From IMG/VR virus record IMGVR_UViG_3300046007_009360: DNA of 64,000 bases; one strand, given 5' to 3'. This DNA is from an uncultured virus (IMG/VR IMGVR_UViG_3300046007_009360). Taxonomy: Duplodnaviria; Heunggongvirae; Uroviricota; Caudoviricetes. A model generated the notes under the pieces. That model ran no database searches and was not told where the DNA came from. It saw only the letters and a list, made by a program, of their open reading frames with translations. The translations under genes and the position numbers were made by a program. Positions 5,437-30,480 of this stretch are shown here, one piece after another; the first letter of the stretch is position 1; each line of letters begins with the position of its first letter.

Positions 5437-5920
5437 GTGGTTGTTGGGTATTAAATTAGGTTGTGGCTGTTCTGCTTGTAATTGTAAAAATAACTTGATC
5501 TAAATTTTAAATTCAGTTAGTATATACTAACTATGGCACTATCAAAAGAAGAACTAAAAGAAGTCCGCAAGATTGCATCTACTATTAAAAATAGCGGTAT
5601 GAATCCTTGGGGAAATACTAAAAAAATTAAATTTAAATCCAAAAAGCCTATCTTCAACAGAGAAGATGCTGATGACCAAGGCGATATGGAAAAATTTAAG
5701 AAAAATCAATAATATATATTGACATTATCTCAAATATATATTAATATAACAATATGAATACAACTCAAAACCAATACACTTGGTCAGTAAAAGCTACCAA
5801 CGGACAAGTAGTTGTGGCTCCAAAGAGCTACCCTACCCTTCGTGGTGCAAAGATCGCCAGTAAGCGTTTCGCTAACAAAACTGGTGGTCAAGTAGTTTCT
5901 GTCTCGACCAAGTAATTAAT

Positions 5921-14617: not shown

Positions 14618-15070
14618 ATGAAGCTCATTAATACTACCTCATATTGCTCTGATAAACTAAAAGAAATTATTAAATGGTGTCTCCCTCAAGGATTGCACCT
14701 TAAAGATATTAGAAAAATAGATTTTGGTAATACTAAATTAGGTTGGCATGGTAGGGCTTGGTATAGTGGTCGTGTGCATATTGGAGTTCCAGCTTATTCT
14801 AAGTATGTTAAACCATATATTAGTGGAGGCGAGAGGGGATATTTACCTCTTAAAACATATAATTGGGAAGAGTCTTTGGTTGATATTATAGCCCATGAAG
14901 TAAGACACCTATGGCAATATAAAAAGAATAAATTTTATCATGGTATTAAAAAGATAAGAAAATACAACATGGGAACTAAAGCTAAATTAAGTGAAGTAGA
15001 TGCTACATTATATGCTATAAGGAAAGTAAGAGAGTATAGAAAGAGTAATATTAAATTTCAATTGACATAA
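14618..15070 (+). CDS. zincin-like metallopeptidase domain protein
   Basis: IIAHEVRHLWQ (HExxH) plus downstream E (SEVDA). Confidence 0.65.
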   Translation: MKLINTTSYCSDKLKEIIKWCLPQGLHLKDIRKIDFGNTKLGWHGRAWYSGRVHIGVPAYSKYVKPYISGGERGYLPLKTYNWEESLVDIIAHEVRHLWQYKKNKFYHGIKKIRKYNMGTKAKLSEVDATLYAIRKVREYRKSNIKFQLT

Positions 15071-15141
15071 GTTGTTGATTATTATATAGTTAGGGCGGCG
15101 GGCTCCCCGCGCGCGCAAGTCGTTGATAATCAAGGTGTTAC
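15067..15141. repeat. paired 27-bp palindrome element E1
   Basis: ATAAGTTGTTGATTATTATATAGTTAG + 21 bp GC-rich spacer + GCAAGTCGTTGATAATCAAGGTGTTAC. Confidence 0.8.
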
Positions 15142-15248
15142 GTATGATAGTATTTATTTTTAACAGGATAGGCAACCCGCTGGCTAGCAGTATCTTATGA
15201 GATGAAAAAAGTTCTTGTCACAAGTTAAAAGTATGGTATGATTATTTT

Positions 15249-16106
15249 ATGGCAAGACAAACCAAACCCGCTCAAAGTGTATACGATTTCGATGTACACC
15301 AAGAGCCACTCCTCACAACTGACGGCAAGAGGACAGGATACTTCGGCATGGTGCGCCGTGACACCGCCGAACCCATTACACTCGGAGTTTGCACCGAGCA
15401 GTATGGTGTGGTGAAAAATGCAGACCTCATCGAGATGGTGGAAACCAACCTCGCCAATCATGACAAACTCTCGAATTTTACCTCGAAGAAGTTCGTCGTG
15501 CGTGACGGCGCTCGTTTCTACGCTTCCTACGACTTCACCGATTTCAAAACGGAATTGAAGCCCGTGGGCAAGCGAGCCAAGGGTGACATTCTTGGGTTGC
15601 GGCTGGTCGTTAACAACAGTTATGACCGCTCAACTCGTGTTTCGTTGTCTCTCGGCTTCCTTCGTCTCATCTGCGAGAACGGTATGACCTCGCTTACCAA
15701 GGAGTTCAGCATGACGAAGCGCCACACGCTTGCTGTCAATCTCGACTTCGTTGGTGATGCATTGGCTCATGCTTGTGACAGCGTAGAATCTTCGGCGCAA
15801 GTTTTCAATAAACTGGCGCAGAAGGCTCTCACTAACGAACAGGGCTTGAACCTGCTCACCAAGCTGGAAGAGAAAGACATTATCTCCGGCAAGGTGCGTG
15901 AGGGGATCGAGGCTGTTTGGCGCAATCCCGCTTATGAGGAGGATACGGATCGCAATCTGTATAACCTTTATAATGCGGCAACTCAGTTCCTGACTCGCAA
16001 TGTCTCGCAAGAGCGCTACGAGTACAGCGAGCGTGTCAACCGTGACCTGCTCAAAGTCTTCAGCGGCAAGACCCGTGACGAAGACCTCTTGAAACTGGTC
16101 GCCTAA
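15249..16106 (+). CDS. DUF932-family phage/plasmid protein
   Basis: VRRDT...LGVC..QYGVVKN...GARFY...LVVNNSYD...LRLICENG...RHT...NLYNLYNAAT. Confidence 0.8.
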   Translation: MARQTKPAQSVYDFDVHQEPLLTTDGKRTGYFGMVRRDTAEPITLGVCTEQYGVVKNADLIEMVETNLANHDKLSNFTSKKFVVRDGARFYASYDFTDFKTELKPVGKRAKGDILGLRLVVNNSYDRSTRVSLSLGFLRLICENGMTSLTKEFSMTKRHTLAVNLDFVGDALAHACDSVESSAQVFNKLAQKALTNEQGLNLLTKLEEKDIISGKVREGIEAVWRNPAYEEDTDRNLYNLYNAATQFLTRNVSQERYEYSERVNRDLLKVFSGKTRDEDLLKLVA

Positions 16107-16128
16107 ACTAAAACCAAAACCTTAACCG

Positions 16129-16157
16129 AGGCGGGGGTAAATCCCCCGCTTCTTTTT
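16129..16157 (+). terminator. intrinsic terminator
   Basis: GCGGGGG-TAAA-TCCCCCGC + TTCTTTTT after the DUF932-like gene. Confidence 0.8.
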
Positions 16158-16175
16158 GTCTAAATTCGATGAGTT

Positions 16176-16250
16176 GTAAGTTGTTGACTATCAAGGATTT
16201 ACGGTGCGCGGGACCCCGCCGTTGTAAGTCGTTGACTATCAAGCACTTAT
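16176..16250. repeat. paired 27-bp palindrome element E2
   Basis: GTAAGTTGTTGACTATCAAGGATTTAC + 21 bp + GTAAGTCGTTGACTATCAAGCACTTAT. Confidence 0.9.
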
Positions 16251-16290
16251 AAACCTTGACATTTATAGAATTTATCTTATAGTTAAGGGA

Positions 16291-16629
16291 GTGAAAGCAA
16301 AACACAAAGTCTATTATAACTTACATAAACATTGTTTGAGTATTATGCTTAAAGGCAAAGTCCTCCAACATAGCTCAGAGTTCTTTTTGAAAGATGTTGA
16401 GTTTCGTGTGAGTCAAGCTGGCAGAAACCGAGTCTTAAAAGAAAAGCGTAAGAATGTCCACGCTTTTGTGTGTGGCACACCAGACGAAGGTTGGCCTATT
16501 CATGGAGAGCGGCAAGTAACCTATAATCCCTATAAGTATCATAGTTTTGTTTATGCTGACACCAAGCGTCCTGTATATAAAGCTAAATGGGCTGGCGTTA
16601 TTGGTCGTGAAATTTTTGTCTTGAATTAA
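16291..16629 (+). CDS. conserved phage hypothetical protein
   Basis: KVYYNLHK...GRNRVLKEKRKNVHAFV...VTYNPYK; own promoter TTGACA 16256. Confidence 0.75.
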   Translation: MKAKHKVYYNLHKHCLSIMLKGKVLQHSSEFFLKDVEFRVSQAGRNRVLKEKRKNVHAFVCGTPDEGWPIHGERQVTYNPYKYHSFVYADTKRPVYKAKWAGVIGREIFVLN

Positions 16630-16796
16630 TCTAAAAGTATACTATAATTATCATATGAACATCACTAAAGTAAAGAAGCTGGCTGAAGGTGGCTATGCTA
16701 TTTACGCTACTGACCCTAAAACTAAAACCGAAACCCAAGTTGGTTATATTGGGGAAAACCTTGACCCTAAAAACTGGCTTCCAGCGGGAACTAAAA

Positions 16797-17156
16797 TTGA
16801 AAATTCTTGAAGAATCTTTTACTTCTAAAGGATTCAAACTTCAGCAGGTAAAGCGTGATGGCGACATCGCTATCTACAAAAAACAACTCGATGACCCCGA
16901 ATGTGAAAACTATCATTATGAAGTTATCGCAATCAAGCGTCACAATGGTTATGAGATCGCTGGCGTAAAGATGCCTCCCGCTGAAATGTATCCTAGCGAT
17001 AGTCAATGGGGCGATTGGGCTTTCACTTGCACTAGCATCGAAGATGCCAACAAGCGTTTCGGTGAATTGCAGGAGAAACTAACAAACTATAATGCAACAT
17101 CAATTCTGCCTAGCGGTGAAAAGCGTGGTCGTGGTCGTCCTCGCAAAATCGCTTGA
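16797..17156 (+). CDS. hypothetical protein with C-terminal AT-hook
   Basis: Ends in KRGRGRPRK; TTG start inferred because a separate 51-aa ORF (16655..16810) lies upstream. Confidence 0.6.
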   Translation: MKILEESFTSKGFKLQQVKRDGDIAIYKKQLDDPECENYHYEVIAIKRHNGYEIAGVKMPPAEMYPSDSQWGDWAFTCTSIEDANKRFGELQEKLTNYNATSILPSGEKRGRGRPRKIA

Positions 17157-17187
17157 CAGAATAAAAAAACATATTACAATCACAACT

Positions 17188-17418
17188 ATGACCTATCATT
17201 GTGCAGTAAGTGGAGAGGCGATCCCTCCAGAGAGAGTTGAGGCTCTGCAAGTCCTCGGCGTTCCAGAGAGTCAATGGACTAAAAAAGAGTATAGTCAAGT
17301 AAAGAAACTTCGTGCCGTGTATGCTGGTGATGATGGCAGTAATGACATCGTTATCTGCGACAAGGTTGATGGTGGCTCACTATTTGATAATGAAATCGCC
17401 GTGGAGGTAGAAGAATGA
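17188..17418 (+). CDS. DksA/TraR-like small protein
   Basis: YHCAVSGEAIPPERVEAL resembles the TraR/DksA zinc-finger region (degenerate Cys); own promoter TTGACA 17153. Confidence 0.5.
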   Translation: MTYHCAVSGEAIPPERVEALQVLGVPESQWTKKEYSQVKKLRAVYAGDDGSNDIVICDKVDGGSLFDNEIAVEVEE

Positions 17419-17621
17419 ATTTAAGATATATCGTTCTGCGTGATGGTATTCGTGTTAGCGAGGATATGCACTCTGACCTAAAGGAAGCTGAAGCAGAAGC
17501 TGAATTTTGGCGGAAGGTTATTCGTGCATGGCCTGATGGCACGAAGGTCGTAATCAAAAAGATTGGCTCGGAAAAGAAAGCCTAAAGATCGGAGGCTGAC
17601 ACTAGCTACGGGCTAGGTGAT

Positions 17622-17715
17622 GCGAGGGTCGTCTAACTGGTTAAGACCCCACACTTATAATGTGGTCGCTCTAGATTTGGGCAAAATGCAGGTTCGAATC
17701 CTGCCCCTCGTACCA
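17622..17715 (+). tRNA. tRNA with TAT anticodon (nominally Ile) and long variable arm
   Basis: GCGAGGG/CCCTCGT acceptor, A73, encoded CCA, CCACA-CTTATAA-TGTGG anticodon arm, 22-nt variable region. Confidence 0.85.
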
Positions 17716-17727
17716 ATCTTATTATAT

Positions 17728-17754
17728 GTAAATCGTTGATATTCAACCAATTAT
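17728..17754. repeat. single 27-bp palindrome copy
   Basis: GTAAATCGTTGATATTCAACCAATTAT directly upstream of a TTGACT promoter. Confidence 0.7.
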
Positions 17755-17793
17755 TTTTGTTGACTATTTATCAAACTATTGTATATTAAACCT

Positions 17794-18021
17794 ATGACAA
17801 ACAAAACCTCAAACTGGGAAGCTCCTAAGTGGACTCCTTACTATACCAAGATGATCTTTGGTGAGCGTAGGGCTTACATTATGGATGCTCGAATCCGTGA
17901 AGCAACCAAACAGAACACATACAGCTTGCAGGATCTTTACAGGATCAGCAAGGCTTTTAATGTGGCCTTCAAGCTCGTTCCAGAGCCTAGTGAATTTCCA
18001 ACGGAGATTTCAGCGGCTTAA
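17794..18021 (+). CDS. hypothetical protein
   Basis: ATG 6 nt after TATATT -10 box. Confidence 0.65.
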   Translation: MTNKTSNWEAPKWTPYYTKMIFGERRAYIMDARIREATKQNTYSLQDLYRISKAFNVAFKLVPEPSEFPTEISAA

Positions 18022-18027
18022 TTTATT

Positions 18028-18100
18028 GGGCTTGTAGCTCAACGGTTAGAGCAGAGGACTCATAATCCTTTGGTTATAGGTTCGAATCCTATCAGGCCCA
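18028..18100 (+). tRNA. tRNA-Ile2/Met(CAT), Ile2-like body
   Basis: GGGCTTG/CAGGCCC acceptor; AGAGCAG..GACTCATAATC..TTGGT resembles bacterial ileX-type tRNA. Confidence 0.9.
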
Positions 18101-18108
18101 AGACTTTC

Positions 18109-18181
18109 GGATCGTTAGCTCAATTGGTAGAGCAGTTGGCTTTTAACCAATAGGTTGTAGGTTCGAGTCCTACACGATCCA
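18109..18181 (+). tRNA. tRNA-Lys(TTT)
   Basis: GGATCGT/ACGATCC acceptor, TTGG-CTTTTAA-CCAA anticodon arm. Confidence 0.95.
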
Positions 18182-18392
18182 AAAAAGTTTAAGAAAACCC
18201 TTGACAAAAAAGCAAAACCTGTTAAACTAAAAACAATGAAACAAACTTATGACATTATTAAGGATAGCCACCTTGTCGCACCCACTTATCATTGGATGCT
18301 TAATGGCTATGCAAAACATACAGAATTGACAGAAGAAGATATTAAGGCATACTTCAAAGCAAGAGCAGAAAACAAAAGGAGAATCAGAAAAA

Positions 18393-18788
18393 ATGAGACA
18401 AATCAAATTATATAAACAAAACCTCGGCGCTCATTGGGTTATTGGAATTAAAGGTTCCAAGGATAAAATCGAGCAGTTCCATAATCGTGTCTATAATTGG
18501 GGTGGAACAAACGGCGAGCTTCAATGGATGGCAGATGACTTTGCTTATTTCTGGATTACCTTTGAGAAGTTGGAGCGAGTGATGTTTAAGTATGTTATGA
18601 ATGGTATGACAGATAAGTTTGGTTTGAAATTCCGCAATCGTAAAGGTGGAATGAAAGAAGTTGTTATGAATCGTGTGCGGAATACAATCAGCAAGATTCC
18701 TGTTGAGAATTTTGTTCGCACCGCACAGATCGAACCAACTTATACGCTTGGAGAAGTTTCGGCTGAAAAGTTAGATACTGACAGCTAA
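18393..18788 (+). CDS. hypothetical protein, YNxxxTNGEL paralog family member 1
   Basis: IEQFHNRVYNWGGTNGEL shared with 22918..23283 and 25346..25765. Confidence 0.8.
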   Translation: MRQIKLYKQNLGAHWVIGIKGSKDKIEQFHNRVYNWGGTNGELQWMADDFAYFWITFEKLERVMFKYVMNGMTDKFGLKFRNRKGGMKEVVMNRVRNTISKIPVENFVRTAQIEPTYTLGEVSAEKLDTDS

Positions 18789-18795
18789 AACAATC

Positions 18796-18871
18796 CGCCT
18801 AGTAGCCCAATGGCAGAGGCAAACGACTTAAAATCGTTATAGTGTCAGTTCGAGTCTGACCTAGGCGACCA
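18796..18871 (+). tRNA. tRNA-Leu(TAA), short variable loop
   Basis: CGCCTAG/CTAGGCG acceptor, A73, CCA, AACGA-CTTAAAA-TCGTT anticodon arm, 5-nt variable loop. Confidence 0.85.
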
Positions 18872-18873
18872 TC

Positions 18874-18947
18874 GCTTTCATAGCTCAATTGGATAGAGCA
18901 ACGGATTTCTAATCCGTAGGTTGCAGGTTCGATCCCTGCTGAAAGCG
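18874..18947 (+). tRNA. tRNA-Arg(TCT)
   Basis: GCTTTCA/TGAAAGC acceptor, ACGGA-TTTCTAA-TCCGT anticodon arm. Confidence 0.95.
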
Positions 18948-19346
18948 AGAATTTTTCCCAAAAGATTTTTTCTTATGTAAAGTTTCTATGTGAGATGGTT
19001 TGAAAGAAATTTTTGGTGGATTTTTCTTGTTATGATTTGTGGGAGTATATCGTGGGGAGTATTGATAGAGCTTTCGAAAATTATAATTACACATCTAAAA
19101 TAACTTTTCCCAATAATTATCATAGCATAAATAAAATATTGAAATAATCTACATGCTACTGTAAAATAGTATATATGAAGCCCGAGAATAGAATCAGCAA
19201 GATATTAGAGAAAAGAGTTCTCAAAGACGAAGATCCTAAACTCATTGCTCAAATAGAAAAATATTTGGCAGAGTTGGAAGTTGTTTTCGTTAAGTGGGCT
19301 AAAGCGCATCCCAATTGGAAAGAATCAGAAGAATAATTTAACTTTT

Positions 19347-19421
19347 GTAAGCCTTTGATTATCAAGTAGTTACATCGGCGGGGACTCTCGCCGCGTAAGT
19401 CGTTGATAGTCAACGAGATAT
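19347..19421. repeat. paired 27-bp palindrome element E3
   Basis: GTAAGCCTTTGATTATCAAGTAGTTAC + 21 bp + GTAAGTCGTTGATAGTCAACGAGATAT. Confidence 0.9.
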
Positions 19422-19460
19422 TTTTCTTGCAGTAAAACGAAGTTATGGTATGATTATCTT

Positions 19461-19727
19461 ATGAACAAAATCAAAAATGCAATCGTATATGCAGTCACCT
19501 ACATCAAGTATCTTGTCCTATTTATTTTGGGACAGAGGTATCTAATCGAATACAAACCCTACGGCGGTGAACAGGTTTTCACCTACATCATCAGCAAGCC
19601 TAGTTCTTTTAGGACGAGTAAGGCTGGTAACAAACTCTTTACGAGCTTTTGCTTCTCTGGTCGTATGGATTCTGGCGTGCGTCAGTTCCGTTATGATCGG
19701 ATCGCTGGAGGTCTCTCGCCAGTTTAA
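19461..19727 (+). CDS. hypothetical protein
   Basis: Own promoter right after E3; followed by a terminator. Confidence 0.7.
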   Translation: MNKIKNAIVYAVTYIKYLVLFILGQRYLIEYKPYGGEQVFTYIISKPSSFRTSKAGNKLFTSFCFSGRMDSGVRQFRYDRIAGGLSPV

Positions 19728-19749
19728 CAACAGAGAGATACTTATAGAA

Positions 19750-19780
19750 AGGGCGAGGAGTAAAATCCTCGCCTTTTTTA
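19750..19780 (+). terminator. intrinsic terminator
   Basis: GGCGAGGA-GTAAAA-TCCTCGCC + T6. Confidence 0.8.
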
Positions 19781-19817
19781 TTTGACAAAATAGTAATTTA
19801 TTATAGGATAGTGGAAG

Positions 19818-19943
19818 TTCTTTCCGCAAGGAGTGAGGATGACTTCCTCCATAAGAGCCCTTGAAGCCCCAATGCCCAGAGTCTGAGGCAATTAAAGGTG
19901 GGAATATATTCTCTTTGATTCTAGAGCAGAGAGAGCGGAAGAA
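19818..19943 (+). ncRNA. candidate small structured RNA
   Basis: TTGACA promoter at 19782; closing stem TTCCGC/GCGGAA enclosing several hairpins. Confidence 0.45.
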
Positions 19944-20126
19944 TTATTTATTACGCCAGCCGTTTCTGTGATTGAAGTTCCAATCTAATAGAGCCCATTC
20001 AAAACCAACATCGTGTCCAGCTTTCTCACTTTCAAGCCATTTATGTTTTAATATCTCTTCTCGTTCTTTGAGGAATTGTTTATATAATGCAGATGATTCT
20101 AATAGACCGCTGACTTTTGAGTTCAT
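19944..20126 (-). CDS. DUF4032-like small protein
   Basis: EILKHKWLESEKAGHDVGFEWALLDW; GTGTAAT motif upstream on the - strand (20145-20151). Confidence 0.7.
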   Translation of the reverse strand: MNSKVSGLLESSALYKQFLKEREEILKHKWLESEKAGHDVGFEWALLDWNFNHRNGWRNK

Positions 20127-20210
20127 ATCTAAATTCTAAATTAGATTACACAAAATAGCAAATAATAATTGCTAAATAGCTAAATACTTAATATAATAAT
20201 ACTACATATT

Positions 20211-20282
20211 GGGGCTATCGTCTAATGGTTAGGACTCCTCGCTTTCAATGAGGGTGTATCGGTTCGAATCCGTTTAGCCCTA
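20211..20282 (+). tRNA. tRNA-Glu(TTC)
   Basis: GGGGCTA/TAGCCCT acceptor, CCTCG-CTTTCAA-TGAGG anticodon arm. Confidence 0.9.
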
Positions 20283-20354
20283 AGTCTTTTAGTATCAAGC
20301 ACTTACAGAAGCGGGGTCCCTGCGGTTCTAAATCGTTGATATTCAATGAGATTC
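20280..20354. repeat. paired 27-bp palindrome element E4
   Basis: CTAAGTCTTTTAGTATCAAGCACTTAC + 21 bp + CTAAATCGTTGATATTCAATGAGATTC; overlaps the tRNA-Glu 3' end. Confidence 0.85.
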
Positions 20355-20393
20355 TTTTGTAGACAAAAAGATAATTTCTGATATATTTAAACT

Positions 20394-21233
20394 ATGAAAG
20401 TTAACGAAATCATCACAGAAAAATTCATTGAAGCCCTCAACAAAGGCGTTTGCCCTTGGCAGAAACCTTGGAAAGTTTTTGATCTTTGCAACGGCGTTTC
20501 CAAAAAGAATTATCGGGGCATCAATCAGTTTTTGCTTCGGATGGTTTCATCGGATGATTTTTTCTTTACCTTTAATCAGATTAAAGAACTTGGCGGAAAG
20601 ATCAAAACTGGGGCAAAGTCGCATATGGTAGTTTATTACAAACTATTGAAGTCTGAGAAAGACAATGAAACCAAAAGCTTTCCGATGATGCGTTATTACA
20701 GAGTCTTTGGTTTGAGCGATGTCGAGGGGCTAAAGTGGAAACAGCCCGAAGTTAAGAAGCTGGAATTTTCTCCAGTAGAAGAAGCAGAGAAGTTGATAAA
20801 CAAGTGCATTATCAAGATCAAGTATGGTGGAAGCCGTGCCTGCTATTACCCGCAGGAACATAAGATTGATCTGCCCGAGAAAGAAAACTTCAACAGCGTT
20901 GAGGAGTATTATTCCACAGCGTTTCACGAAATTGGTCACGCTATGCACAAGGCAACCAATGATGATATCAAAAATGGATTTGGTTCAGAGAATTATAGCA
21001 AAGAGGAATTGACCGCAGAGATTTTTGCGAGTCTTTGTCTTAACTTTTGTGGGATTGATTCTGAAAAATGTTTCAACAATTCTGCGAGCTATCTTTCGAG
21101 TTGGCTCCAAGTTTTGAAAAAAGATATGAACTTTATTATTTCGGCTTCGAGCAAAGCTCAAAAAAGATTTGACGCTTTCCTTGGTAAAAAAGAAACCGAA
21201 GAGATTCCAGAAGAAGAAACTGTAACTGCTTAA
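20394..21233 (+). CDS. ardC: ArdC-like antirestriction/ssDNA-binding protein with zincin domain
   Basis: PWQKPW...NYRGINQ...TFNQ...GGKI...YYSTAFHEIGH...YSKEELTAE. Confidence 0.9.
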   Translation: MKVNEIITEKFIEALNKGVCPWQKPWKVFDLCNGVSKKNYRGINQFLLRMVSSDDFFFTFNQIKELGGKIKTGAKSHMVVYYKLLKSEKDNETKSFPMMRYYRVFGLSDVEGLKWKQPEVKKLEFSPVEEAEKLINKCIIKIKYGGSRACYYPQEHKIDLPEKENFNSVEEYYSTAFHEIGHAMHKATNDDIKNGFGSENYSKEELTAEIFASLCLNFCGIDSEKCFNNSASYLSSWLQVLKKDMNFIISASSKAQKRFDAFLGKKETEEIPEEETVTA

Positions 21234-21296
21234 GTCTCAACAACTTAGGCAAGCGGGGCCCTTACGGTTGTAAGTCATTGATACTCAACGAGATTT
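21222..21296. repeat. paired 27-bp palindrome element E5
   Basis: GTAACTGCTTAAGTCTCAACAACTTAG (overlaps ardC stop) + 21 bp + GTAAGTCATTGATACTCAACGAGATTT. Confidence 0.85.
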
Positions 21297-21345
21297 AACT
21301 GCAAAAAAAACTTGTCACAAGAAAAAAAACTGATAAAGTAATTTT

Positions 21346-21981
21346 ATGTTCAAAAACAAAAAGCAAGCCGAAGCTATTGTCGGCACACTATCTAAACCCT
21401 CGAAGATGCCAGGTTATGCTTATTCAACGCCAGCGAAGCGTTGCATTATCGGGCAAAAAATGCGTCAGGTTGCGGGAAGCATTTGTGCTTTCTGCTATGC
21501 TCTTAAAGGGCGTTATGTTTTCCCCAATGTTCAAGCTGCGATGGAAAAGCGTTTTGCTTCTCTTACTCACGATCTTTGGGTGGATGCGATGACTTACCTT
21601 ATTGGTAAAGCAAACAACCCTCACTTCCGTTGGCACGATTCGGGAGATTTGCAAGGTATTTGGCATCTCGAAAAGATTGTCAAAGTTGCAAAGAATCTTC
21701 CGCATATTTCTTTTTGGTTGCCTACTCGTGAATACTCTTTCGTTTCAGAGTATATAGCCAAGGGCGGTGAAGTTCCTTTTAATCTTACCATCCGTCTCTC
21801 TGCTCTTATGATGAATGGCCCCGCACCGGTTGGGTTAGCAGAACGCCTTGGCCTTTGTGTTAGCGGTGCGAGCAACAAGGGAGAATTTAATTGCCCTTCA
21901 TCGAAACAAGGAAACAAGTGCGGTTCGTGCCGTGCATGCTGGCATAAGAATGAGTTTGCAATTAACTACAAAAAGCATTAA
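21346..21981 (+). CDS. Gp88-like Cys-rich phage protein
   Basis: SKMPG...C...ICAFCYA..GRY...FRWHDSGD...WLPTRE...CP...KCGSCRACW. Confidence 0.8.
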   Translation: MFKNKKQAEAIVGTLSKPSKMPGYAYSTPAKRCIIGQKMRQVAGSICAFCYALKGRYVFPNVQAAMEKRFASLTHDLWVDAMTYLIGKANNPHFRWHDSGDLQGIWHLEKIVKVAKNLPHISFWLPTREYSFVSEYIAKGGEVPFNLTIRLSALMMNGPAPVGLAERLGLCVSGASNKGEFNCPSSKQGNKCGSCRACWHKNEFAINYKKH

Positions 21982-22213
21982 GATGTCGTCTTATGCTTTT
22001 AACAATTCTAACCTCGGCGATAATTCTAACATTAATCCTAAACAAACAAAAATGAACATCGAAAAACTATTAAACGAAAATCTTGAAACTTTTTATCCGT
22101 GGAGCGATAACGATAATCCTCCTCTAGATTCAAACAAAACTTTTTTGCAAAAAGAAAGAGAGATAGATGAATTTTTTGAGGGTTGGCGAGCGTCTATGTA
22201 AAACTTAATCTTC

Positions 22214-22288
22214 GTAAGTCTTTTGTAGTCAGGGACTTACGAGGGCGCCCTCCCCGCCGCCGTAAGTCGTTGATAGTTAACTACTTAC
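22214..22288. repeat. paired 27-bp palindrome element E6
   Basis: GTAAGTCTTTTGTAGTCAGGGACTTAC + 21 bp + GTAAGTCGTTGATAGTTAACTACTTAC; at the convergence of + and - genes. Confidence 0.9.
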
Positions 22289-22399
22289 GCTTACGCTCCC
22301 AAAGCCAGAGGCCAAAGTTAATAAGGGTTTCTAATAGAGCTAGAGCAAGGAAAAAAATTCCAAGTCCAGCGATTGCGAGTATATATTTTTCAATCATAA

Positions 22400-22672
22400 T
22401 TATTCTCCACAAATTTCTGGATCACCAGCCCAACCGAAGTCTTCCATCTGGTAGCACCCGCCACCATAGTCTTCGTCTGTGCCGTGACCTGCAGAAGCCA
22501 TAGCAGAATCGAAGTCGCCATCCATCGATTCGTCCACATCCGAGAGGTTAGATTGAGAAGATGCGAGGATGCGCTCGTCATCACGCGTCATCTCGTTAAG
22601 GATGTCGCGCACATCTAACCGAGTCAGCATGTGCTGGTTCATCCACTCCTTGAGAGAGGCTTTGTAGTCCAT
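22400..22672 (-). CDS. acidic hypothetical protein
   Basis: MDYKASLKEW...DGDFDSAMASAGHGTDEDYG; start coupled to upstream ORF 22674..22898. Confidence 0.65.
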   Translation of the reverse strand: MDYKASLKEWMNQHMLTRLDVRDILNEMTRDDERILASSQSNLSDVDESMDGDFDSAMASAGHGTDEDYGGGCYQMEDFGWAGDPEICGE

Positions 22673-22673
22673 G

Positions 22674-22898
22674 TTATTTGACCTCCATTGCATTCTGACA
22701 GGTGAGGCGAAAAGGAACAGCCTTAGCGCCAAAGAAGTTGGTGACCTCGGTATCCCTCTCATCGTAAGAGGGAGCCATCTTGTCGAGCATCTCGTTGATG
22801 GCATCAGCGGAGTTGATGTAATCGAAGAATGCTTCCGCATCAGCAAAGGCTTCGGTGCAGTTAATCGAGGCTAGGTAGGATATGTCGTTTTGGTTCAT
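22674..22898 (-). CDS. hypothetical protein
   Basis: TTGACA 34 nt upstream on the - strand. Confidence 0.7.
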   Translation of the reverse strand: MNQNDISYLASINCTEAFADAEAFFDYINSADAINEMLDKMAPSYDERDTEVTNFFGAKAVPFRLTCQNAMEVK

Positions 22899-22917
22899 AT
22901 AGGTAATGTATCACAGA

Positions 22918-23283
22918 TTACGATTCTGTCAAAGATTTTCTGCAAGAATATTCCATTGAATGACAACGCCTTACAAAAGTTGCTGGTTTTATTTCTGAAA
23001 TTATTTGATCTGCCAATGCTTCTGCGTGAGAGTTCCAATCACCTTGAGCAAAAGATGATTCGAGATTCGTGGCGAGTGCGAGAGATAAAGCCCTGCGAAA
23101 CTTTGCTGGTTCGGCATAAAAGTAAAACGCTTTTCCGCTTCCACGATCTTGTAATTTATAATTGGTTCCGCCGAAATTGTAAATTGCATTATAGAATCTT
23201 TCAGCAGATGGGAAATCTGCTTCGATTAAATAGGCGAGGTTAGGGCCAAAAGGTTCCATAAAGATTTTTATTTTATTCTGCAT
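22918..23283 (-). CDS. hypothetical protein, YNxxxTNGEL paralog family member 2
   Basis: ERFYNAIYNFGGTNYKLQDRGSGKAFYFYAEP. Confidence 0.75.
   Translation of the reverse strand: MQNKIKIFMEPFGPNLAYLIEADFPSAERFYNAIYNFGGTNYKLQDRGSGKAFYFYAEPAKFRRALSLALATNLESSFAQGDWNSHAEALADQIISEIKPATFVRRCHSMEYSCRKSLTES
22948..22974. repeat. single degenerate 27-bp palindrome copy
   Basis: Reverse complement GTAAGGCGTTGTCATTCAATGGAATAT, just upstream of a - strand TTGACA. Confidence 0.55.
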
Positions 23284-23323
23284 AAAAAGAGAATAGCAAA
23301 AATTTTCTTTTTGTCAAGCTTAT

Positions 23324-23398
23324 GTAAGTCGTTGATAGTCAAGGACTTGCGCGGGGGGCTTCCCTTCGTCTGTAAGTCGTTGATGCTTAGAGACTTAC
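23324..23398. repeat. paired 27-bp palindrome element E7
   Basis: GTAAGTCGTTGATAGTCAAGGACTTGC + 21 bp + GTAAGTCGTTGATGCTTAGAGACTTAC. Confidence 0.9.
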
Positions 23399-23536
23399 AA
23401 TAGGTCTCGGAGATTCAAGCAACTCGCAGAAACATAGTAGAAAAATCTTTCACGCAAAAAGTTTTTCTTTTCGCCGTGAGAAACTGCGAGACGAAAAGTT
23501 TTTTTATTTATTTGGAAAAGAATCTTTTTCATTTTT

Positions 23537-23827
23537 TTAGACTCCTTCTGCTTTGGCGATGTCTCTGCCAATTTCAACCGAGAGGTTGAGTTGATCCAAG
23601 AGATGTTTATTCGTTGCGAGTTTCGTGATGGTCACAGCGTTTTCGGTTGCCCAATCCCAGCGAGAGGAATATCCTGCACCTTGGCTAACGCTGATTTTGA
23701 TGAAGGTGTTTTCGTCTTTCACATAAAGGATTTCTTCGGGCTGAAGCCAAGGAGTTTTCGTCCTGTCATTGGTCAAGAGGTAGAAGGTTCCGATTTCGGG
23801 TTGCATTGTTTTGTTCTTATCTTTCAT
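23537..23827 (-). CDS. hypothetical protein
   Basis: TTGACA 34 nt upstream on the - strand. Confidence 0.7.
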   Translation of the reverse strand: MKDKNKTMQPEIGTFYLLTNDRTKTPWLQPEEILYVKDENTFIKISVSQGAGYSSRWDWATENAVTITKLATNKHLLDQLNLSVEIGRDIAKAEGV

Positions 23828-23871
23828 ACTTTTATCCTATCAGATTTTTTGATTTTGTCAACTTTTATTTC

Positions 23872-24066
23872 TTATTGAGCATCAACGGCTTGAATACCCT
23901 TGCGAAGATAAATGGTAGTCCATTTACCCTTATCAGGGCCATCCATAATTTCAGCGGTTGCGGTTCTTGTTTTCCAACCAATCGTAGAAGGGAATATTTT
24001 GACTAGCATTCCTTCGTAGATGTAGAGGTCTTTGTTTTCGTATAGTTCGGGATTTATTGTTATCAT
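23872..24066 (-). CDS. hypothetical protein
   Basis: MITINPELYENK...; start placed after the stop of 24071..24217. Confidence 0.6.
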   Translation of the reverse strand: MITINPELYENKDLYIYEGMLVKIFPSTIGWKTRTATAEIMDGPDKGKWTTIYLRKGIQAVDAQ

Positions 24067-24070
24067 TTTT

Positions 24071-24217
24071 TTATCCTTTCTTAAGAGTTTCGATTTCGTC
24101 CATTTTGACGATGATTTTTTCCATCCGTTTTGCGGAATCTTGATAGCCTTTGGAAATTTCCTCAAGGCGTTTGATTGTTTCATTGATGTCGAATTTGATT
24201 TTGATTTTTGTTTTCAT
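24071..24217 (-). CDS. 48-aa helical protein, paralog of 25805..25969
   Basis: Hand-translated MKTKIKIKFDINETIKRLEEISKGYQDSAKRMEKIIVKMDEIETLKKG. Confidence 0.7.
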   Translation of the reverse strand: MKTKIKIKFDINETIKRLEEISKGYQDSAKRMEKIIVKMDEIETLKKG

Positions 24218-24286
24218 TTTTTTTCTTCTTTCTTTCTACCTTTAATCTATCACATTTTTCATTTTTCGCAAGAAAAATCTTCATTT

Positions 24287-24361
24287 AAATTTCATTGACC
24301 ATCAACGAGTTACAACGCAAGGGAGGCCCTCCGTTCAAGTAGTTGATAGTCAACGCTTTCG
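24287..24361. repeat. paired 27-bp palindrome element E8
   Basis: AAATTTCATTGACCATCAACGAGTTAC + 21 bp + TCAAGTAGTTGATAGTCAACGCTTTCG. Confidence 0.85.
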
Positions 24362-24446
24362 GTTTTCTGCGTTTAAGACTCAAAGTTGAAAAGATCAGAC
24401 ATTGATCTTTTGCATTCCATCAGGTTTTGTTCCAAGATCAGCATTC

Positions 24447-24522
24447 GCAAGTGATTGATTATTAGGCACTTATAAAGACAGCCCCCCCGCCCCACGTAAG
24501 TCGTTGATACTGAACAACTTAC
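24447..24522. repeat. paired 27-bp palindrome element E9
   Basis: GCAAGTGATTGATTATTAGGCACTTAT + 22 bp C-rich spacer + GTAAGTCGTTGATACTGAACAACTTAC. Confidence 0.85.
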
Positions 24523-24533
24523 GGAGGCTGCTT

Positions 24534-24929
24534 TTAGAATGGTGTGATTTTTATTTTTAGAGATTCTTCTAAAGTTTTTTTGGAGGGTTTAAAGAAGATG
24601 ACTTTGTCGTTTATTTTTTCGACTGAAACTTTTTCTGGCAGAGATGCAAAGTCTCCTTCGTCATCTGTTGCAACGATCAGAGCTTTTCCAGCGAAAGGTT
24701 GCGAAGCGATGCCAAACTTAAAGTATGCTTGGTTCTCGCTGTCTTTTAGCAAGCCTTCGTCATCTAGAATCATATCAATTCCATTTGCAAGGCCTGTCAT
24801 AGTTATCACATCGCATCCCAAGAGTGCGTAGATAGTTTGGATTTTAGTGTCTACCATCTTAACCTCTATGATGGTTTCGGTGAATGGATCGATGAGGATC
24901 GCTCGTTTGATTGGATTATTGTTTGTCAT
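24534..24929 (-). CDS. DUF3846-like protein
   Basis: AILIDP...IYALLGCDVI...MILDDEGLL...FAGKALIV..D.EG. Confidence 0.7.
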   Translation of the reverse strand: MTNNNPIKRAILIDPFTETIIEVKMVDTKIQTIYALLGCDVITMTGLANGIDMILDDEGLLKDSENQAYFKFGIASQPFAGKALIVATDDEGDFASLPEKVSVEKINDKVIFFKPSKKTLEESLKIKITPF

Positions 24930-24966
24930 ATCTTTAGCTTATCATACCTTTCGTTGTTGTCAAGTC

Positions 24967-25344
24967 TTACAAGCGGTAAAACTTGTGATTCTTAATTACT
25001 GCGACAGTCTGCTCTCCTCTTGACCACTTGGGCGACACTTGGAAGGTGTGGTAGTGGTTCGCACCCTGCACAACATCGGGCATTCGTTTCTCTGCTACAA
25101 GTTTAGCGAGACGGATGGCGTTGGGTGCTTGAGGGTTCTTTAGAAGCTCCTGCTTCTTCGCCTCACTCACTCCACCATTCCAGAAGCTGAATTGCTTTGG
25201 TGCAAGGCAGACTTGTGTGGGCGTTTGCTTTCGCTCGATGGCTCGTGTCTGAATGACAGACGCAACACCCGCCATTCCCTCAAAGCCTTCGCCTCGTGCT
25301 TCGCCAAGGATGGTCAAAGCTATAACAAGAATCTCTGCGGTCAT
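24967..25344 (-). CDS. SleB-like cell wall hydrolase (Hydrolase_2)
   Basis: ALTILGEARGEG...VASVI..R...QFSFWN...GANHYH...PKW...IKNHKFY; start at MTAEIL. Confidence 0.85.
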   Translation of the reverse strand: MTAEILVIALTILGEARGEGFEGMAGVASVIQTRAIERKQTPTQVCLAPKQFSFWNGGVSEAKKQELLKNPQAPNAIRLAKLVAEKRMPDVVQGANHYHTFQVSPKWSRGEQTVAVIKNHKFYRL

Positions 25345-25345
25345 T

Positions 25346-25765
25346 TTAGTCTCTCCCCGCACTGATCGCACCGCAGTAGTCAGAGGGTTTCTCTGCGGTG
25401 ATGCTTCCAAGGTTAAAGACATCGGTGCTGATGCTGGTGCGAAGGAATCGCCCATCTTTAATCGCATCGAACTTGTCTTGGGCTTTCTGCCTTGCAAGGG
25501 CGAGCAACCCACCCTTCATCCCTTTAGCTTTGATCTTATTGCATAGAGCATAGAGAGCCACTTTAGTCATCGCTTCTAGCACGGCTTCTGGCTGTGCGTA
25601 GAAGTAGAACGCCTTGCCGTTGCCCATATCGTGCAACTCGCCATTGGTTGCACTATGGTTATACATAGCGTTGTGGAAGTTTTCGATCTGGCTCTTGTTG
25701 CCTTCCAAGAGGAAAGCGGTAGTGTTGCCGAAGGTTTGTTTGGTGATGGTGATTTGGTTTTTCAT
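25346..25765 (-). CDS. hypothetical protein, YNxxxTNGEL paralog family member 3
   Basis: IENFHNAMYNHSATNGELHDMGNGKAFYFYAQP. Confidence 0.8.
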   Translation of the reverse strand: MKNQITITKQTFGNTTAFLLEGNKSQIENFHNAMYNHSATNGELHDMGNGKAFYFYAQPEAVLEAMTKVALYALCNKIKAKGMKGGLLALARQKAQDKFDAIKDGRFLRTSISTDVFNLGSITAEKPSDYCGAISAGRD

Positions 25766-25804
25766 ATAGCTTATATTGCTTTCTGGTTTGATTTTCGTCA
25801 AGGG

Positions 25805-25969
25805 TTATTTGGTTTCGCCCATATACTTTTTGTGGGCTTCATCCTTCTTCGCTTGGGCTTCTGCCACGATGTTGTCGAGGCGTTGGGCAGAGGCTTTGTA
25901 GCCTTCTGCGATAGCGTTGAGTCTGCGGATGGTTTCGTCTAGGTTGAACTTGTTTGCTTTAACTTTCAT
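25805..25969 (-). CDS. 54-aa helical protein, paralog of 24071..24217
   Basis: Hand-translated MKVKANKFNLDETIRRLNAIAEGYKASAQRLDNIVAEAQAKKDEAHKKYMGETK; TTGACA 34 nt upstream. Confidence 0.75.
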   Translation of the reverse strand: MKVKANKFNLDETIRRLNAIAEGYKASAQRLDNIVAEAQAKKDEAHKKYMGETK

Positions 25970-26029
25970 ACTCTTAATCTATCACACTATTACGATTTGT
26001 CAAGCGATGCTAGGCTTTTTATTGCATTT

Positions 26030-26056
26030 AAATTTCATTGATTATCAACGACTTAC
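26030..26056. repeat. single 27-bp palindrome copy (last of the family)
   Basis: AAATTTCATTGATTATCAACGACTTAC. Confidence 0.85.
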
Positions 26057-26615
26057 AGAACATAGCTAAAAAATTTTAAGATATATACCCCCATTTTTGA
26101 AAATCGTTAAACCATTTCTAGCTCAACATGGCCGTGGGGGTATTAACATCATTCTCCCCAACTATATAATACTATTTATCCATATATTCTTATCTATACC
26201 CCCTTTTTCTAAATCTATAAAAAAGAATTTAAATTCATTTATCTCTTAAGGTAAAAAAATCCCGGCGGCTATTTTTGTTATAAACCCCTTTTAATATGCT
26301 TGTTTTTAATATAAAAGTATAGTATAGTAGTAATATTATGATTAGCTTAGTAGTTAATCTTGTTTTAACTTATTTTGCATTTAAGTTTGTTTTATGGTTA
26401 TATGGTTTCTTTAAAGATAAGGATGAATCACAATTATTGATTATTAATAAATCTGACGAAAAAATTGACCCCAAGCCTTTAGATTTACCGCCCGACCCCA
26501 AAATTAACCTATCATTAGATAACATAAATAAGATAAAAGATACTAATTTCAAGAATCTCCTAGTTAAACATAAACCAAAAAGAAAGAATCACCTAGTAGT
26601 TAGTGTAAATTATGT

Positions 26616-29348: not shown

Positions 29349-29807
29349 ATGCTTAAAATATATTGTACAGAATGTGGTAATCCAACTACTTATACTTCCG
29401 CTAAACCTAAATTTTGTAGTTCATGCGGAACACCATTTGACAAGTTAATTGTTAATAAAGTTTTATTACAAAAACCTACAGCAGATCAACCAAAAACACC
29501 AAAAAGAATCTTACCAAAACTAGAAAGAAAAGCTGAAGTTGAAGATTATGATGACGAAAATGACGATGAATTTACAGATGTAAATCATGTTCCAAACATT
29601 GGTAGTCTAGATATAGAACTTCAAGAAAATCCTGTCCCTAAAAAAACAAAGATTGGAGATATTCTTGGAAGTGCAAAATCTGGAGCAAAAAGAGAAAAGA
29701 TAAAAGGAAAACCTTCAACGAAGACAGATCGCAAAAAGTTTCTAGAAGACTTCAAGAGAGAAGCTGGAGCAATTCGTCCATCCTCAAGAGGAAGACAAGA
29801 TGGCTAA
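29349..29807 (+). CDS. zinc-ribbon protein
   Basis: CTECG...FCSSCG. Confidence 0.7.
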   Translation: MLKIYCTECGNPTTYTSAKPKFCSSCGTPFDKLIVNKVLLQKPTADQPKTPKRILPKLERKAEVEDYDDENDDEFTDVNHVPNIGSLDIELQENPVPKKTKIGDILGSAKSGAKREKIKGKPSTKTDRKKFLEDFKREAGAIRPSSRGRQDG

Positions 29808-30480
29808 AAAGCCCTCATTCGAAAGCTTAATTGACGTAATAAATTCCGAAATAATTAAAAGAAAAAGTAAGTGGAATTTAACAGCGATAAACTGGATGGA
29901 TTTTAGTGATGTATCTCAGATACTAAGAATACATATTTATAAAAAATGGCATCTTTATGATCATAAAAAACCATTAGCCCCTTGGGTTAATCGTATTATC
30001 AGTAACCAAATTAAAAATTTAATAAGAAATAATTATAGTAATTTTACTCGCCCATGTCTTAAATGTGCAGCAGCAGAGAGCGAAGAAGGCTGTTCAATTT
30101 ACGGACAGCAATGTAATGCGTGTCCTCTATACGCTAATTGGGAAAGAAGTAAGAAAAGCGCGCACGATACAAAGTTGACACTTAGCATAGAGAATCACTC
30201 TCAAGAAATCAATGATATGCCAACTAATAATTTTAATATGGAAGAAACTGCTCAGAATATACATAAGAAGATGGAGAAAGTTTTAAAACCGATTGAATGG
30301 AAAGTTTATAAATATTTATATATTGAAGGTAAAGATGAAGAGCAAACTGCAAAATTAATGGGTTATAGAACAAGTGAGAAGAATAGAATTGCTGGATATA
30401 AACAAATTAAAAATATAAAAAAGATAATTATAGTTAAAGTAAAAAAACATTTATATAATGGCGATATAGATATTCATTAA
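29800..30480 (+). CDS. sigma70/ECF-like transcription factor with Cys-rich insertion
   Basis: Region-2-like DVSQILRIHIYKKWHLYD..KPLAPWVNRIISNQIKN; region-4-like LKPIEWKVYKYLYIEGKDEEQTAKLMG. Confidence 0.65.
   Translation: MAKKPSFESLIDVINSEIIKRKSKWNLTAINWMDFSDVSQILRIHIYKKWHLYDHKKPLAPWVNRIISNQIKNLIRNNYSNFTRPCLKCAAAESEEGCSIYGQQCNACPLYANWERSKKSAHDTKLTLSIENHSQEINDMPTNNFNMEETAQNIHKKMEKVLKPIEWKVYKYLYIEGKDEEQTAKLMGYRTSEKNRIAGYKQIKNIKKIIIVKVKKHLYNGDIDIH

Follow-up and report, generated by a model that had tools for sequence, protein, structure and literature searches.

The stretch of DNA considered here, 64,000 nucleotides of the uncultured tailed virus IMGVR_UViG_3300046007_009360 (henceforth the window), carries between positions 15067 and 26056 a repeated module of 75 bp with dyad symmetry: two 27-bp palindromes, one on each side of a GC-rich core some 21 bp long. 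We see about an even chance that this module is a composite object: two sites at which a host protein of the IHF/DNABII type binds, forming a bent boundary in phase with the neighbouring promoter, and at the same time the homology joint used for the exchange of gene cassettes. It appears to mark every junction between self-expressing cassettes, each made of a host-type sigma70 promoter followed by one or several leaderless genes. A DNA-bending protein supplied by the host, of the DNABII/IHF kind, would bind both sites and create a bent nucleoprotein boundary, and this boundary may support or insulate the adjacent early promoter. Recombination driven by homology between modules, whether in one genome or in two relatives infecting the same cell, would delete, insert or permute cassettes in the manner of the PeSLs, the early promoters with stem-loops of T4-type phages; as the same 75 bp or so recur at each junction, ordinary homologous recombination between modules could achieve this.

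The palindrome has the consensus GTAAGTCGTTGA-N3-TCAACGACTTAC. A scan of the window allowing up to 9 mismatches in 24 positions recovers 21 copies, with 2 to 8 mismatches, exactly where a previous sequence-only reading of this DNA had placed them: 15067, 15115, 16176, 16224, 17728, 19347, 19395, 20280, 20328, 21222, 21270, 22214, 22262, 22948, 23324, 23372, 24287, 24335, 24447, 24496 and 26030. It adds a weak single copy at 23867 (9/24 mismatches) that was missing from that list. The further claims that the copies are confined to 15067-26056 and that most are paired also hold. All 22 copies lie inside 11 kb of the 64 kb, and the other 53 kb have only seven weak matches, with 8 or 9 mismatches; at three mismatches or fewer the window has seven copies, for 0.00 expected in 100 shuffles. 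Nine pairs surround GC-rich spacers, eight of them at a spacing of 48 bp and one (24447/24496) at 49 bp. The singles at 17728, 22948 and 26030 are found again, 23867 making a fourth and weaker one. This segment, called the island in what follows, has 41.7% GC, against 31.7% in the remaining window.

The way in which the palindromes vary tells much about their nature. Over 141 copies from ten sources, 79.7% of the arm cells can pair, against 79.6 ± 0.5 in shuffled sets (244 of 500 as high), and 30 cells are compensatory where 32.8 are expected. A larger set of 239 copies, shuffled within contigs, has 2073 Watson-Crick cells against 2103 ± 12.7, and its arm mismatches are nearly equal in kind (G-T 188, A-C 223). 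Since the arms do not covary, these comparisons make it highly probable that the palindromes are double-stranded sites recognized by a protein rather than selected hairpins; the arms would be complementary because each matches one common half-site, as a dimeric DNA-binding protein predicts. Conservation follows the same lines. In orthologous elements of G002, the closest distinct relative of the window, 93.5% of the informative palindrome positions are identical (303/324), and in the more distant G003 88.3% (233/264), against 89.4% and 78.8%, respectively, for the rest of the island, so that the informative positions outdo coding DNA. Low-information palindrome positions are identical at 77.6% (G002) and 70.0% (G003), spacers at 79.1% and 60.4%. 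The spacers retain their composition, not their sequence.

The positions most conserved in the palindrome are T2 A3 A4, T6 and T9 T10 G11 A12, with their mirror images. Read outwards from the centre, each half gives W-A-T-C-A-A-N4-T-T-A, which fits the 13-bp IHF consensus WATCARNNNNTTR, as quoted in a passage of PMC9820253. The palindrome can therefore be written as two mirrored IHF-type half-sites sharing the central W: YAA-N4-TTGAT-W-ATCAA-N4-TTR. Exact matches to WATCARNNNNTTR number 39 in the window for 15.7 ± 4.1 expected; 19 are in the island, and of these 18 are in register within palindromes, 16 of the 21 having at least one. Matches in the same register occupy 24 of 28 palindromes in the relative G004, 13 of 22 in G005 and 17 of 20 in G006. 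The DNABII profile PF00216 finds nothing in five phage records, among them the complete genome G004, so that an IHF-type binder, if there is one, would have to be supplied by the host. When the strict pair pattern was looked for in 185,579 species genomes, it returned 59 loci, about 50 of them in Bacteroidota and with AT-rich spacers; the doubled half-site is thus not confined to the phages, in keeping with a host protein that is conserved widely. All in all, we place the proposal that the binder is an IHF-type protein of the host slightly below an even bet.

These chromosomal loci deserve a few remarks of their own. A Bacteroidota host for the phages was considered and rejected, because they use TTGACA/TATAAT promoters and GGAGG ribosome sites. 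In a metagenome-assembled genome of the Bernardetiaceae, the palindromes belong to a miniature inverted-repeat transposable element (MITE) of about 165 bp, which has 18-bp terminal inverted repeats (CAGCAATTCCCACTTTGA ...) and three IHF-type palindromes centred on TTGATAATCAA, and which is present on at least 12 contigs (L167, L180, L185, L189, L193, L197, L203, L206-L209 and L213). Another palindrome pair, with a spacer that is not GC-rich, lies at 3993-4061 of L204, a contig of 60% GC in an unclassified assembled genome; a tyrosine-integrase fragment and helix-turn-helix genes are found about 1.9 kb away, and the place resembles an att-type region of a different mobile element. Finally L184, a 139-kb contig in an assembled genome of Candidatus Saccharibacteria, has ten palindromes at its end, with GC hairpin spacers of the G006 type. 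This is a phage island of the module family, either a binning artefact or a hint at the host.

Gene content changes at the elements. Compared with G002, at 88-90% identity, the island is collinear except there. The ArdC unit 20354-21236 is missing from G002, in which one hybrid element, with the junction inside it, replaces two elements of the window. The DUF3846 unit exists in G002 as an allele with 72.8% identity between flanks that are 88-90% identical, a unit of 160 bp is duplicated, and similarity stops at the last element. Seven of the nine ends of high-scoring segment pairs fall within 30 bp of an element, a neighbourhood that makes up 14% of the island, and none of 10,000 random draws matched this. 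The order of genes, which the sequence-only reading had suggested comparing between relatives, does differ, with breakpoints at these very places in G002. G003 is without two units of the window and has extra ones. As further cases in point, DUF932 precedes the gp82-like gene in the window and follows it in G005 and in c85; GP88 comes before DUF932 in G004; F14 and GP88 are swapped between c69 and c70. Some contigs assembled from metagenomes, selected at 90% likeness, join distant parts of the island at or near elements: X18 connects 23352 to 22255 through a different GC spacer (depth 2.2) and also 24315 to 26199, while X19 connects 24439 to 26038 (side 22). These joints possibly come from relatives and count as weak hints. 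Taken together, the sequence comparisons indicate that the module is quite probably the junction at which cassettes are exchanged through homology.

The units between the elements seem to express themselves. In the window, 32 promoters of the sigma70 type (31 distinct) have an ATG 4-9 nt past the -10 box, opening a reading frame (ORF) of at least 35 codons, for 2.3 in shuffles; 27 of them are at 1-26.4 kb, and 15 at 14.3-26.4 kb. With the start codon so close, the early transcripts would be leaderless, and the first 26 kb look like the early region; genes placed further downstream inside units have ribosome sites of the GGAGG type. Strong sigma70-like promoters, with scores of 10-11 of 12, do adjoin most elements, as had been noticed at first reading. 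A gap of 5-73 nt separates them from the conserved 75 bp, to which they do not belong, and the pair at 22214 has no promoter. Palindrome and -35 box are separated in the window by 5, 5, 5, 5, 5, 6, 6, 15, 15, 26 and 72-73 nt, with steps of about one helical turn. An automated set of 27 gaps from 11 lineages gives a Rayleigh R of 0.446 at 10.5 bp, with p about 0.005 (about 0.03 for the 21 gaps left when the window is removed), values that are optimistic because three periods were compared and some of the units share homology. The palindromes hold a preferred helical register with the downstream -35 box, which is suggestive and not proof. The two arms also differ, and the asymmetry flips with the strand, as first described: in 10 of the 11 copies proximal to a promoter, the arm facing it is degenerate and A/T-rich and the consensus is kept in the half facing away, the summed mismatches being 41 on the promoter side and 13 on the other.

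The ends of the units are less ordinary. A canonical intrinsic terminator follows the DUF932 gene (16128..16152, plus strand). The island has just one other strong terminator, so that most units would end directly at an element. A scan for terminator-like sites gives 12 for 10.7 expected, and a single one, at 19400-19416, is located in an element, where a proximal palindrome meets a T-run. The GC cores are followed by GTAAGT rather than by T-runs and do not qualify as intrinsic terminators. On the same subject, a strong promoter (TTGACA-16-TAGGAT) stands directly after the terminator 19752-19773, and about 130 nt free of ORFs separate it from the 3' end of the convergent gene 19944-20126. This region, 19782-19943, is a candidate small RNA gene, with no match in Rfam.

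To be sure, besides the optimism of the register statistics, several observations weigh against the composite reading. The IHF match concerns a degenerate consensus of nine positions, and the chance that a palindrome of this kind fits some known motif is, by our estimate, about one in ten. Positions foreign to the IHF consensus are conserved too (A22 at 0.89, C7/G21, G5/C23), and may point to a more specific protein. The fit of the geometry, with its shared central W, to a single DNABII dimer is assumed, as is the presence of IHF in the host, and pair spacings across lineages (41-60 bp) have no common helical phase. Against G003 the breakpoints coincide with elements in 4 of 16 cases, which is not significant (p=0.18). 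Lastly, about 13 leaderless early promoters, at 1-14.6 kb, are without any element; as a result the module can be no general requirement for early expression, and belongs to the GC-richer island.

The sequence-only reading had hesitated between tandem operators for a dimeric regulator and recombination sites of a cassette-shuffling system, and each of these models survives in part. The operator model is supported by the behaviour of the palindromes as protein sites, by their conservation and by their register with promoters. What does not agree with it, or with any simple operator or activator, is that the palindromes do not overlap the -35 and -10 boxes, that the pair at 22214 has no promoter and lies between convergent genes, and that the pair at 24447 is at the 3' end of a gene; the element-free early promoters, the match of the half-sites to host IHF and the lack of any phage regulator among the genes identified speak in the same direction. 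It is rather unlikely, in our opinion, that the palindromes serve as operators or enhancers of a sequence-specific regulator of their own, so far unrecognized, which the phage would encode, possibly as a conserved protein of unknown family, and which would switch the whole island in the way of KorB/KorA of IncP plasmids or ArdK of IncN plasmids. The 12-bp arms are indeed conserved beyond the IHF consensus, the sites are restricted to one co-regulated island and are in register with its promoters, and the same palindrome consensus is kept in lineages of 30-50% GC. There is also a precedent, since PMC6289460 describes the CUP elements, upstream of genes in the leading region of IncN plasmids, as bound by ArdK. 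However, profiles for HTH_3 (PF01381) and ParB_N (PF02195), like that for DNABII, find nothing in the five records, complete genome included, even if small or novel regulators may escape them; the Pfam scans of ORFs show no DNA-binding domain; and the architecture of the half-sites recurs in unrelated Bacteroidota chromosomes and MITEs, which favours a universal host protein. Still less can be said for a module working as a folded nucleic acid, either an RNA of three hairpins (terminator, RNase III site or stabilizer of 3' ends) or a structure of single-stranded DNA akin to the single-stranded promoters of plasmid leading regions, to which we give a very slim chance. Some 80% of the arm positions can pair, GC hairpins with varying loops are clear in the spacers of some lineages (G006, L184), most units have no canonical terminator, and the site 19400-19416 was flagged as terminator-like. 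But the arms do not covary, with G-T and A-C mismatches about equal; the folding of 119 spacers surpasses that of shuffles by little (mean z = -0.62, 15% below -2); the U-tract is mostly missing, one palindrome in 21 having been flagged; Rfam returns tRNAs only and no family matching the module; and ordinary double-strand promoters are found downstream.

The cassette model, for its part, is sustained by the gain, loss and reordering of units at the elements, and is contradicted, as far as a dedicated enzyme is concerned, by the absence of recombinases of the tyrosine and serine types and of Y1 transposases, even from a relative whose genome is complete. The earlier statement that the window encodes no recombinase agrees with both Pfam and PHROGs. 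Its suggestion to look for a recombinase or a helix-turn-helix gene beyond the window led nowhere: profiles for serine recombinases (PF00239), tyrosine recombinases (PF00589) and Y1 transposases (PF01797) match none of the five records, G004 included. Pfam scans of ORFs from 55-70 residues upwards saw neither recombinase nor binder in 30 island and 67 other ORFs of the window, in 150 island ORFs of relatives, or in 176 ORFs of G004 (26 from the island and 150 of the 170 outside it). A dedicated recombinase system for the modules is unlikely. As no recombinase was found and the sites are conserved in sequence and not in structure, exchange through homology, as with PeSLs, is a better fit than an integron-like process. 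For general recombination or repair the phages carry two nucleases, one of the PD-(D/E)XK and one of the ERCC4 type, along with a RuvB-like AAA+ ATPase whose C-terminal part is a winged helix. The latter is encoded in four element-bearing phages (G001:C1:54111-54998, G004:C1:35396-36322, G006:C1:24203-25096 and L157 17898-18827), at 38-53% identity to the copy of G005, and it adjoins the island in G005, G006 and contig L057. We hold it very improbable that the modules are targets of site-specific exchange, integron-like or res-like, by a recombinase of an unrecognized family or acting in trans. Cassettes are inserted or deleted exactly from element to element and cargo order is shuffled between lineages, to which may be added, as a weak sign, the low-depth contig that passes from 23352 to 22255 through another GC spacer. 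The paired subsites around a spacer recall resolvase res sites, which can have two dimer-binding subsites, and sites of the IHF type often serve recombinases and transposases as cofactor sites. Yet, apart from the missing enzyme, the 3-bp centre is too short for the overlap region of a tyrosine recombinase, the cassettes stand in both orientations with promoters of their own, and the conservation of sequence without structure is the opposite of what attC sites show. A selfish miniature element (MITE, REP/BIME or REPIN) spreading in tolerant intergenic DNA has the faintest chance of all. Spacers are nearly identical in some genomes (four identical ones among the 13 pairs of G004), suggesting recent copying or homogenization, and similar palindromes are part of the Bernardetiaceae MITE. 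Against this, copies are restricted to one island despite the intergenic DNA available elsewhere, the Y1/RAYT transposase is absent, the phage modules have no terminal inverted repeats or target duplications in the sequences inspected, and they are placed in register with promoters and subject to purifying selection at their informative positions. One may also imagine that the modules are docking sites of a true phage system of cassette exchange, in which bending of the IHF type builds a synapse and an unrecognized enzyme exchanges cassettes precisely; GP88, DUF932 or the core RuvB-like ATPase could be that enzyme. We find this improbable; if true, such a system would be an integron in function, serving self-expressing anti-defence genes.

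To return to paired IHF-type sites at homology joints, the module is widespread. An exact-pattern scan of IMG/VR gives at least 140 loci in at least 102 sequence clusters, of which at least 33 have two or more copies, at least 25 a pair and at least 11 three or more pairs; these cluster counts are lower bounds, because many loci are only about 600 bp long. Among the matches listed, the palindrome consensus is identical across relatives, on contigs of 30-50% GC. Pair spacing is fixed in each lineage within a range of 41-60 bp: among the same matches it is 50 bp in at least 48 pairs, 48 bp in at least 21, 58 bp in at least 12, 41-42 bp in at least nine and 52-53 bp in at least nine. The spacers average 79% GC. 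Confinement also holds beyond the window, for the motif is not spread evenly in G004 (complete, 170.5 kb), which has 27 of its 28 palindromes in one stretch of about 16.5 kb running across the record ends (169688 to 15658), the 28th being a weak copy with eight mismatches. The island is richer in GC than the backbone in all five relatives examined (47.1% versus 34.2% in G004). They draw on a shared pool of cargo, with DUF932 in ten regions, GP88 in ten and the gp82-like protein in seven, together with DUF3846, Hydrolase_2, SLT, lysozyme and SprT-like proteins. In several lineages with the 50-bp spacing, a block CGTGCCAAsT (reverse TTGGCACG-N4-yTG) is seen about 20 nt from the element, between it and the actual sigma70 promoter; in G004 it is at 1359-1400, 2757-2800, 4120-4160 and 5488-5530 of the locus L148, and L037, L043, L063 and L065 have it in similar places. 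The block resembles the -24 box of sigma54. A sigma54 promoter was nonetheless dismissed for TTGGCACG, as the GC of the -12 box is mostly missing and the promoter would fire toward the element, away from the genes.

No description of the module came up when the palindrome strings were searched in the main texts of PMC papers under CC licences and of bioRxiv preprints. The string matches that did appear were set aside, one being a PCR primer in a paper on ICEclc and the other a FabT operator that shares only the core TTGATTATCAA. Nor is the module present in cultured phages as far as a BLAST search of its 75 bp against 50,697 phage records can tell, the matches being at chance level (E=7).

The closest analogy is with the PeSLs. 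According to Arbiol et al. 2010 (PMC2839356) and Comeau et al. 2014 (PMC4122927), these associate strong early promoters with terminator stem-loops in the hyperplastic regions of T4-type phages, where they shuffle modules by recombination. The likeness covers several points: a short repeated regulatory module next to strong early promoters of the sigma70 type, a plastic region of small non-essential genes, indels and replacements between close relatives that end in the modules, and an exchange proposed to proceed by homologous recombination, without a dedicated recombinase. By contrast, the repeat here is made of two protein-site palindromes and a GC core instead of a terminator hairpin, the promoter is outside the 75 bp at variable, phased distances, and the phages are not of the T4 type, their terminase having 23-26% identity to that of large Firmicutes siphophages. 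Thus the module would act like a PeSL in genome evolution and yet be no member of that family, because its palindromes are protein sites without selected pairing, its promoter is external and its phages are unrelated to T4.

IHF sites occur upstream of phage and mobile-element promoters, lambda pL and Mu Pe being familiar examples, and in recombination sites. The present sites are like them in having a half-site in register in 16 of 21 palindromes, in preceding early promoters with a preference for one helical face, and in the asymmetry of the proximal copies, whose intact consensus half points away from the promoter. They differ in that two consensus halves are fused head to head, with binding only predicted, and in being fixed as pairs around a GC core with additional conserved positions. 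The REP/BIME family of enterobacteria (RIP/RIB) provides an intergenic mosaic in which GC-rich palindromes accompany an IHF site; here the IHF-type sites are outside and the GC core inside, everything is in one phage island, and there is no RAYT transposase. Integron attC arrays share the succession of small cassettes with a palindromic site at each boundary, whereas the phage cassettes have no integrase, carry their own promoters, stand in both orientations and conserve the sequence of the site rather than its structure. With the CUP elements, as PMC6289460 presents them, the module has in common a repeat ahead of several establishment or anti-restriction genes, a protein site in a promoter context and Ard cargo; the CUP regulator, on the other hand, is encoded in the same region, where none was found here, no likeness of sequence is expected, and the CUP elements belong to plasmids and not to phages.

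If paired IHF-type sites do serve as homology joints, a large clade of uncultured freshwater phages would arrange its fast-evolving early accessory genes with a single portable boundary module, a host architectural protein being, so to speak, written into the grammar of phage cassettes. This would be a second example of shuffling by regulatory repeats after the PeSLs, mechanistically different from them. The module would also be a sequence handle on candidate genes for anti-defence or host takeover in metagenomes, bracketed by it and near ArdC. More generally, arrays that look integron-like in raw sequence need not mean that a recombinase is at work.

The phage itself is a large uncultured tailed one, of which the window is a part encoding terminase, portal, tape measure, PhoH and a sigma-factor-like protein. 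Its nearest record, G001, is a viral contig of 84.6 kb with an estimated completeness of 52%, hence a genome of about 160 kb. The island is present in DNA sequencing runs from lake-water metagenomes. There is no close cultured phage: besides the Firmicutes siphophages already mentioned, the terminase is as distant from that of one Microcystis phage, and a near-identity search of the island against cultured phages matched tRNAs only. The sigma-factor-like protein (29800-30477, Sigma70_r2, E=1.4e-5) is encoded beside PhoH and presumably serves middle or late genes, the island using promoters of the host type.

Scans with Pfam, PHROGs and a tRNA search find in the island DUF932, L5 gp82-like, ArdC, GP88, DUF3846 and hydrolase genes, many small unknowns and six tRNA genes. 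On the plus strand are the DUF932 protein (15249..16106, Pfam E=2.3e-14), leaderless behind the promoter 15215-15242; a protein like gp82 of mycobacteriophage L5 (16291..16629, Pfam E=5.4e-31); an ArdC-type anti-restriction protein (20394..21233), leaderless, which combines ArdcN with a zincin peptidase (Pfam 1.6e-23 and 5e-31) and matches an anti-restriction PHROG at 2.6e-58; and a GP88-family protein (21346..21981, Pfam E=2e-27), leaderless as well. The minus strand encodes the DUF3846 protein (24534..24929, Pfam) and a cell-wall hydrolase (Hydrolase_2, 24967..25344, Pfam E=6.3e-15). Judged by these families, the cargo looks like accessory, anti-defence or establishment-type genes. Several of them are typical of the leading regions of conjugative elements, whose anti-defence genes are reportedly the subject of a Nature paper of 2024. 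Predicted structures, from shallow alignments of seven and ten sequences, are too poor for a fold search (pLDDT 50.8 for DUF932 and 48.5 for GP88), and profile searches of the PDB with cargo proteins gave only spurious coiled-coil matches. Contigs from RNA libraries map on several cargo genes; such libraries may contain DNA, and this is no proof of expression. A family of 121-139 amino acids, F2, has three paralogues in separate cassettes of the island (18393-18788, 22918-23283 and 25346-25765) and recurs in G002, G003, G004 and two further contigs; searches of Pfam, PHROG and the Atlas found no match to it. The six tRNA genes are placed as cargo between elements. One of them, tRNA-Ile with anticodon TAT (17622-17715), is 94 nt long, about 20 nt more than the other six tRNAs of the phage, which an insertion or an unusually long arm may explain.

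Going along the island, pair 1 (15067..15141, spacing 48 bp, as in pairs 2 to 8) has a degenerate left palindrome that overlaps the stop of ORF 14618-15070, and pair 2 (16176..16250) is lodged between the terminator that ends at 16152 and the promoter 16256-16283. The single at 17728..17754 is 12 nt past tRNA-Ile and 5 nt ahead of the -35 box of promoter 17760-17787. Pair 3 (19347..19421) is 5 nt upstream of a -35-like TTGCAG that serves the leaderless gene 19461-19727. Pair 4 (20280..20354) overlaps by 4 nt the 3' end of tRNA-Glu and precedes the ArdC promoter 20360-20387. The ArdC cassette absent from G002 has its left junction here and its right one at pair 5 (21222..21296), which overlaps the ArdC stop codon. 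Pair 6 (22214..22288) has convergent genes on either side and a promoter on neither. From there on the promoters are on the minus strand: the single at 22948..22974 is 15 nt from the -35 box of promoter 22932-22905, pair 7 (23324..23398) 6 nt from that of 23317-23290, the weak single at 23867..23893 5 nt from that of 23861-23834, and the single at 26030..26056, with which the island ends on the right, 26 nt from that of 26003-25976. Pair 8 (24287..24361) is upstream of the minus-strand promoter of gene 24071-24217, and pair 9 (24447..24522, 49 bp) immediately follows the DUF3846 gene at its 3' end. Between these last two pairs, positions 24362-24446 make up an 'empty cassette' of 85 bp that contains a hairpin, AAAGATCA-N5-TGATCTTT; G002 has a copy of it at a second position, and a related one is found in G003.

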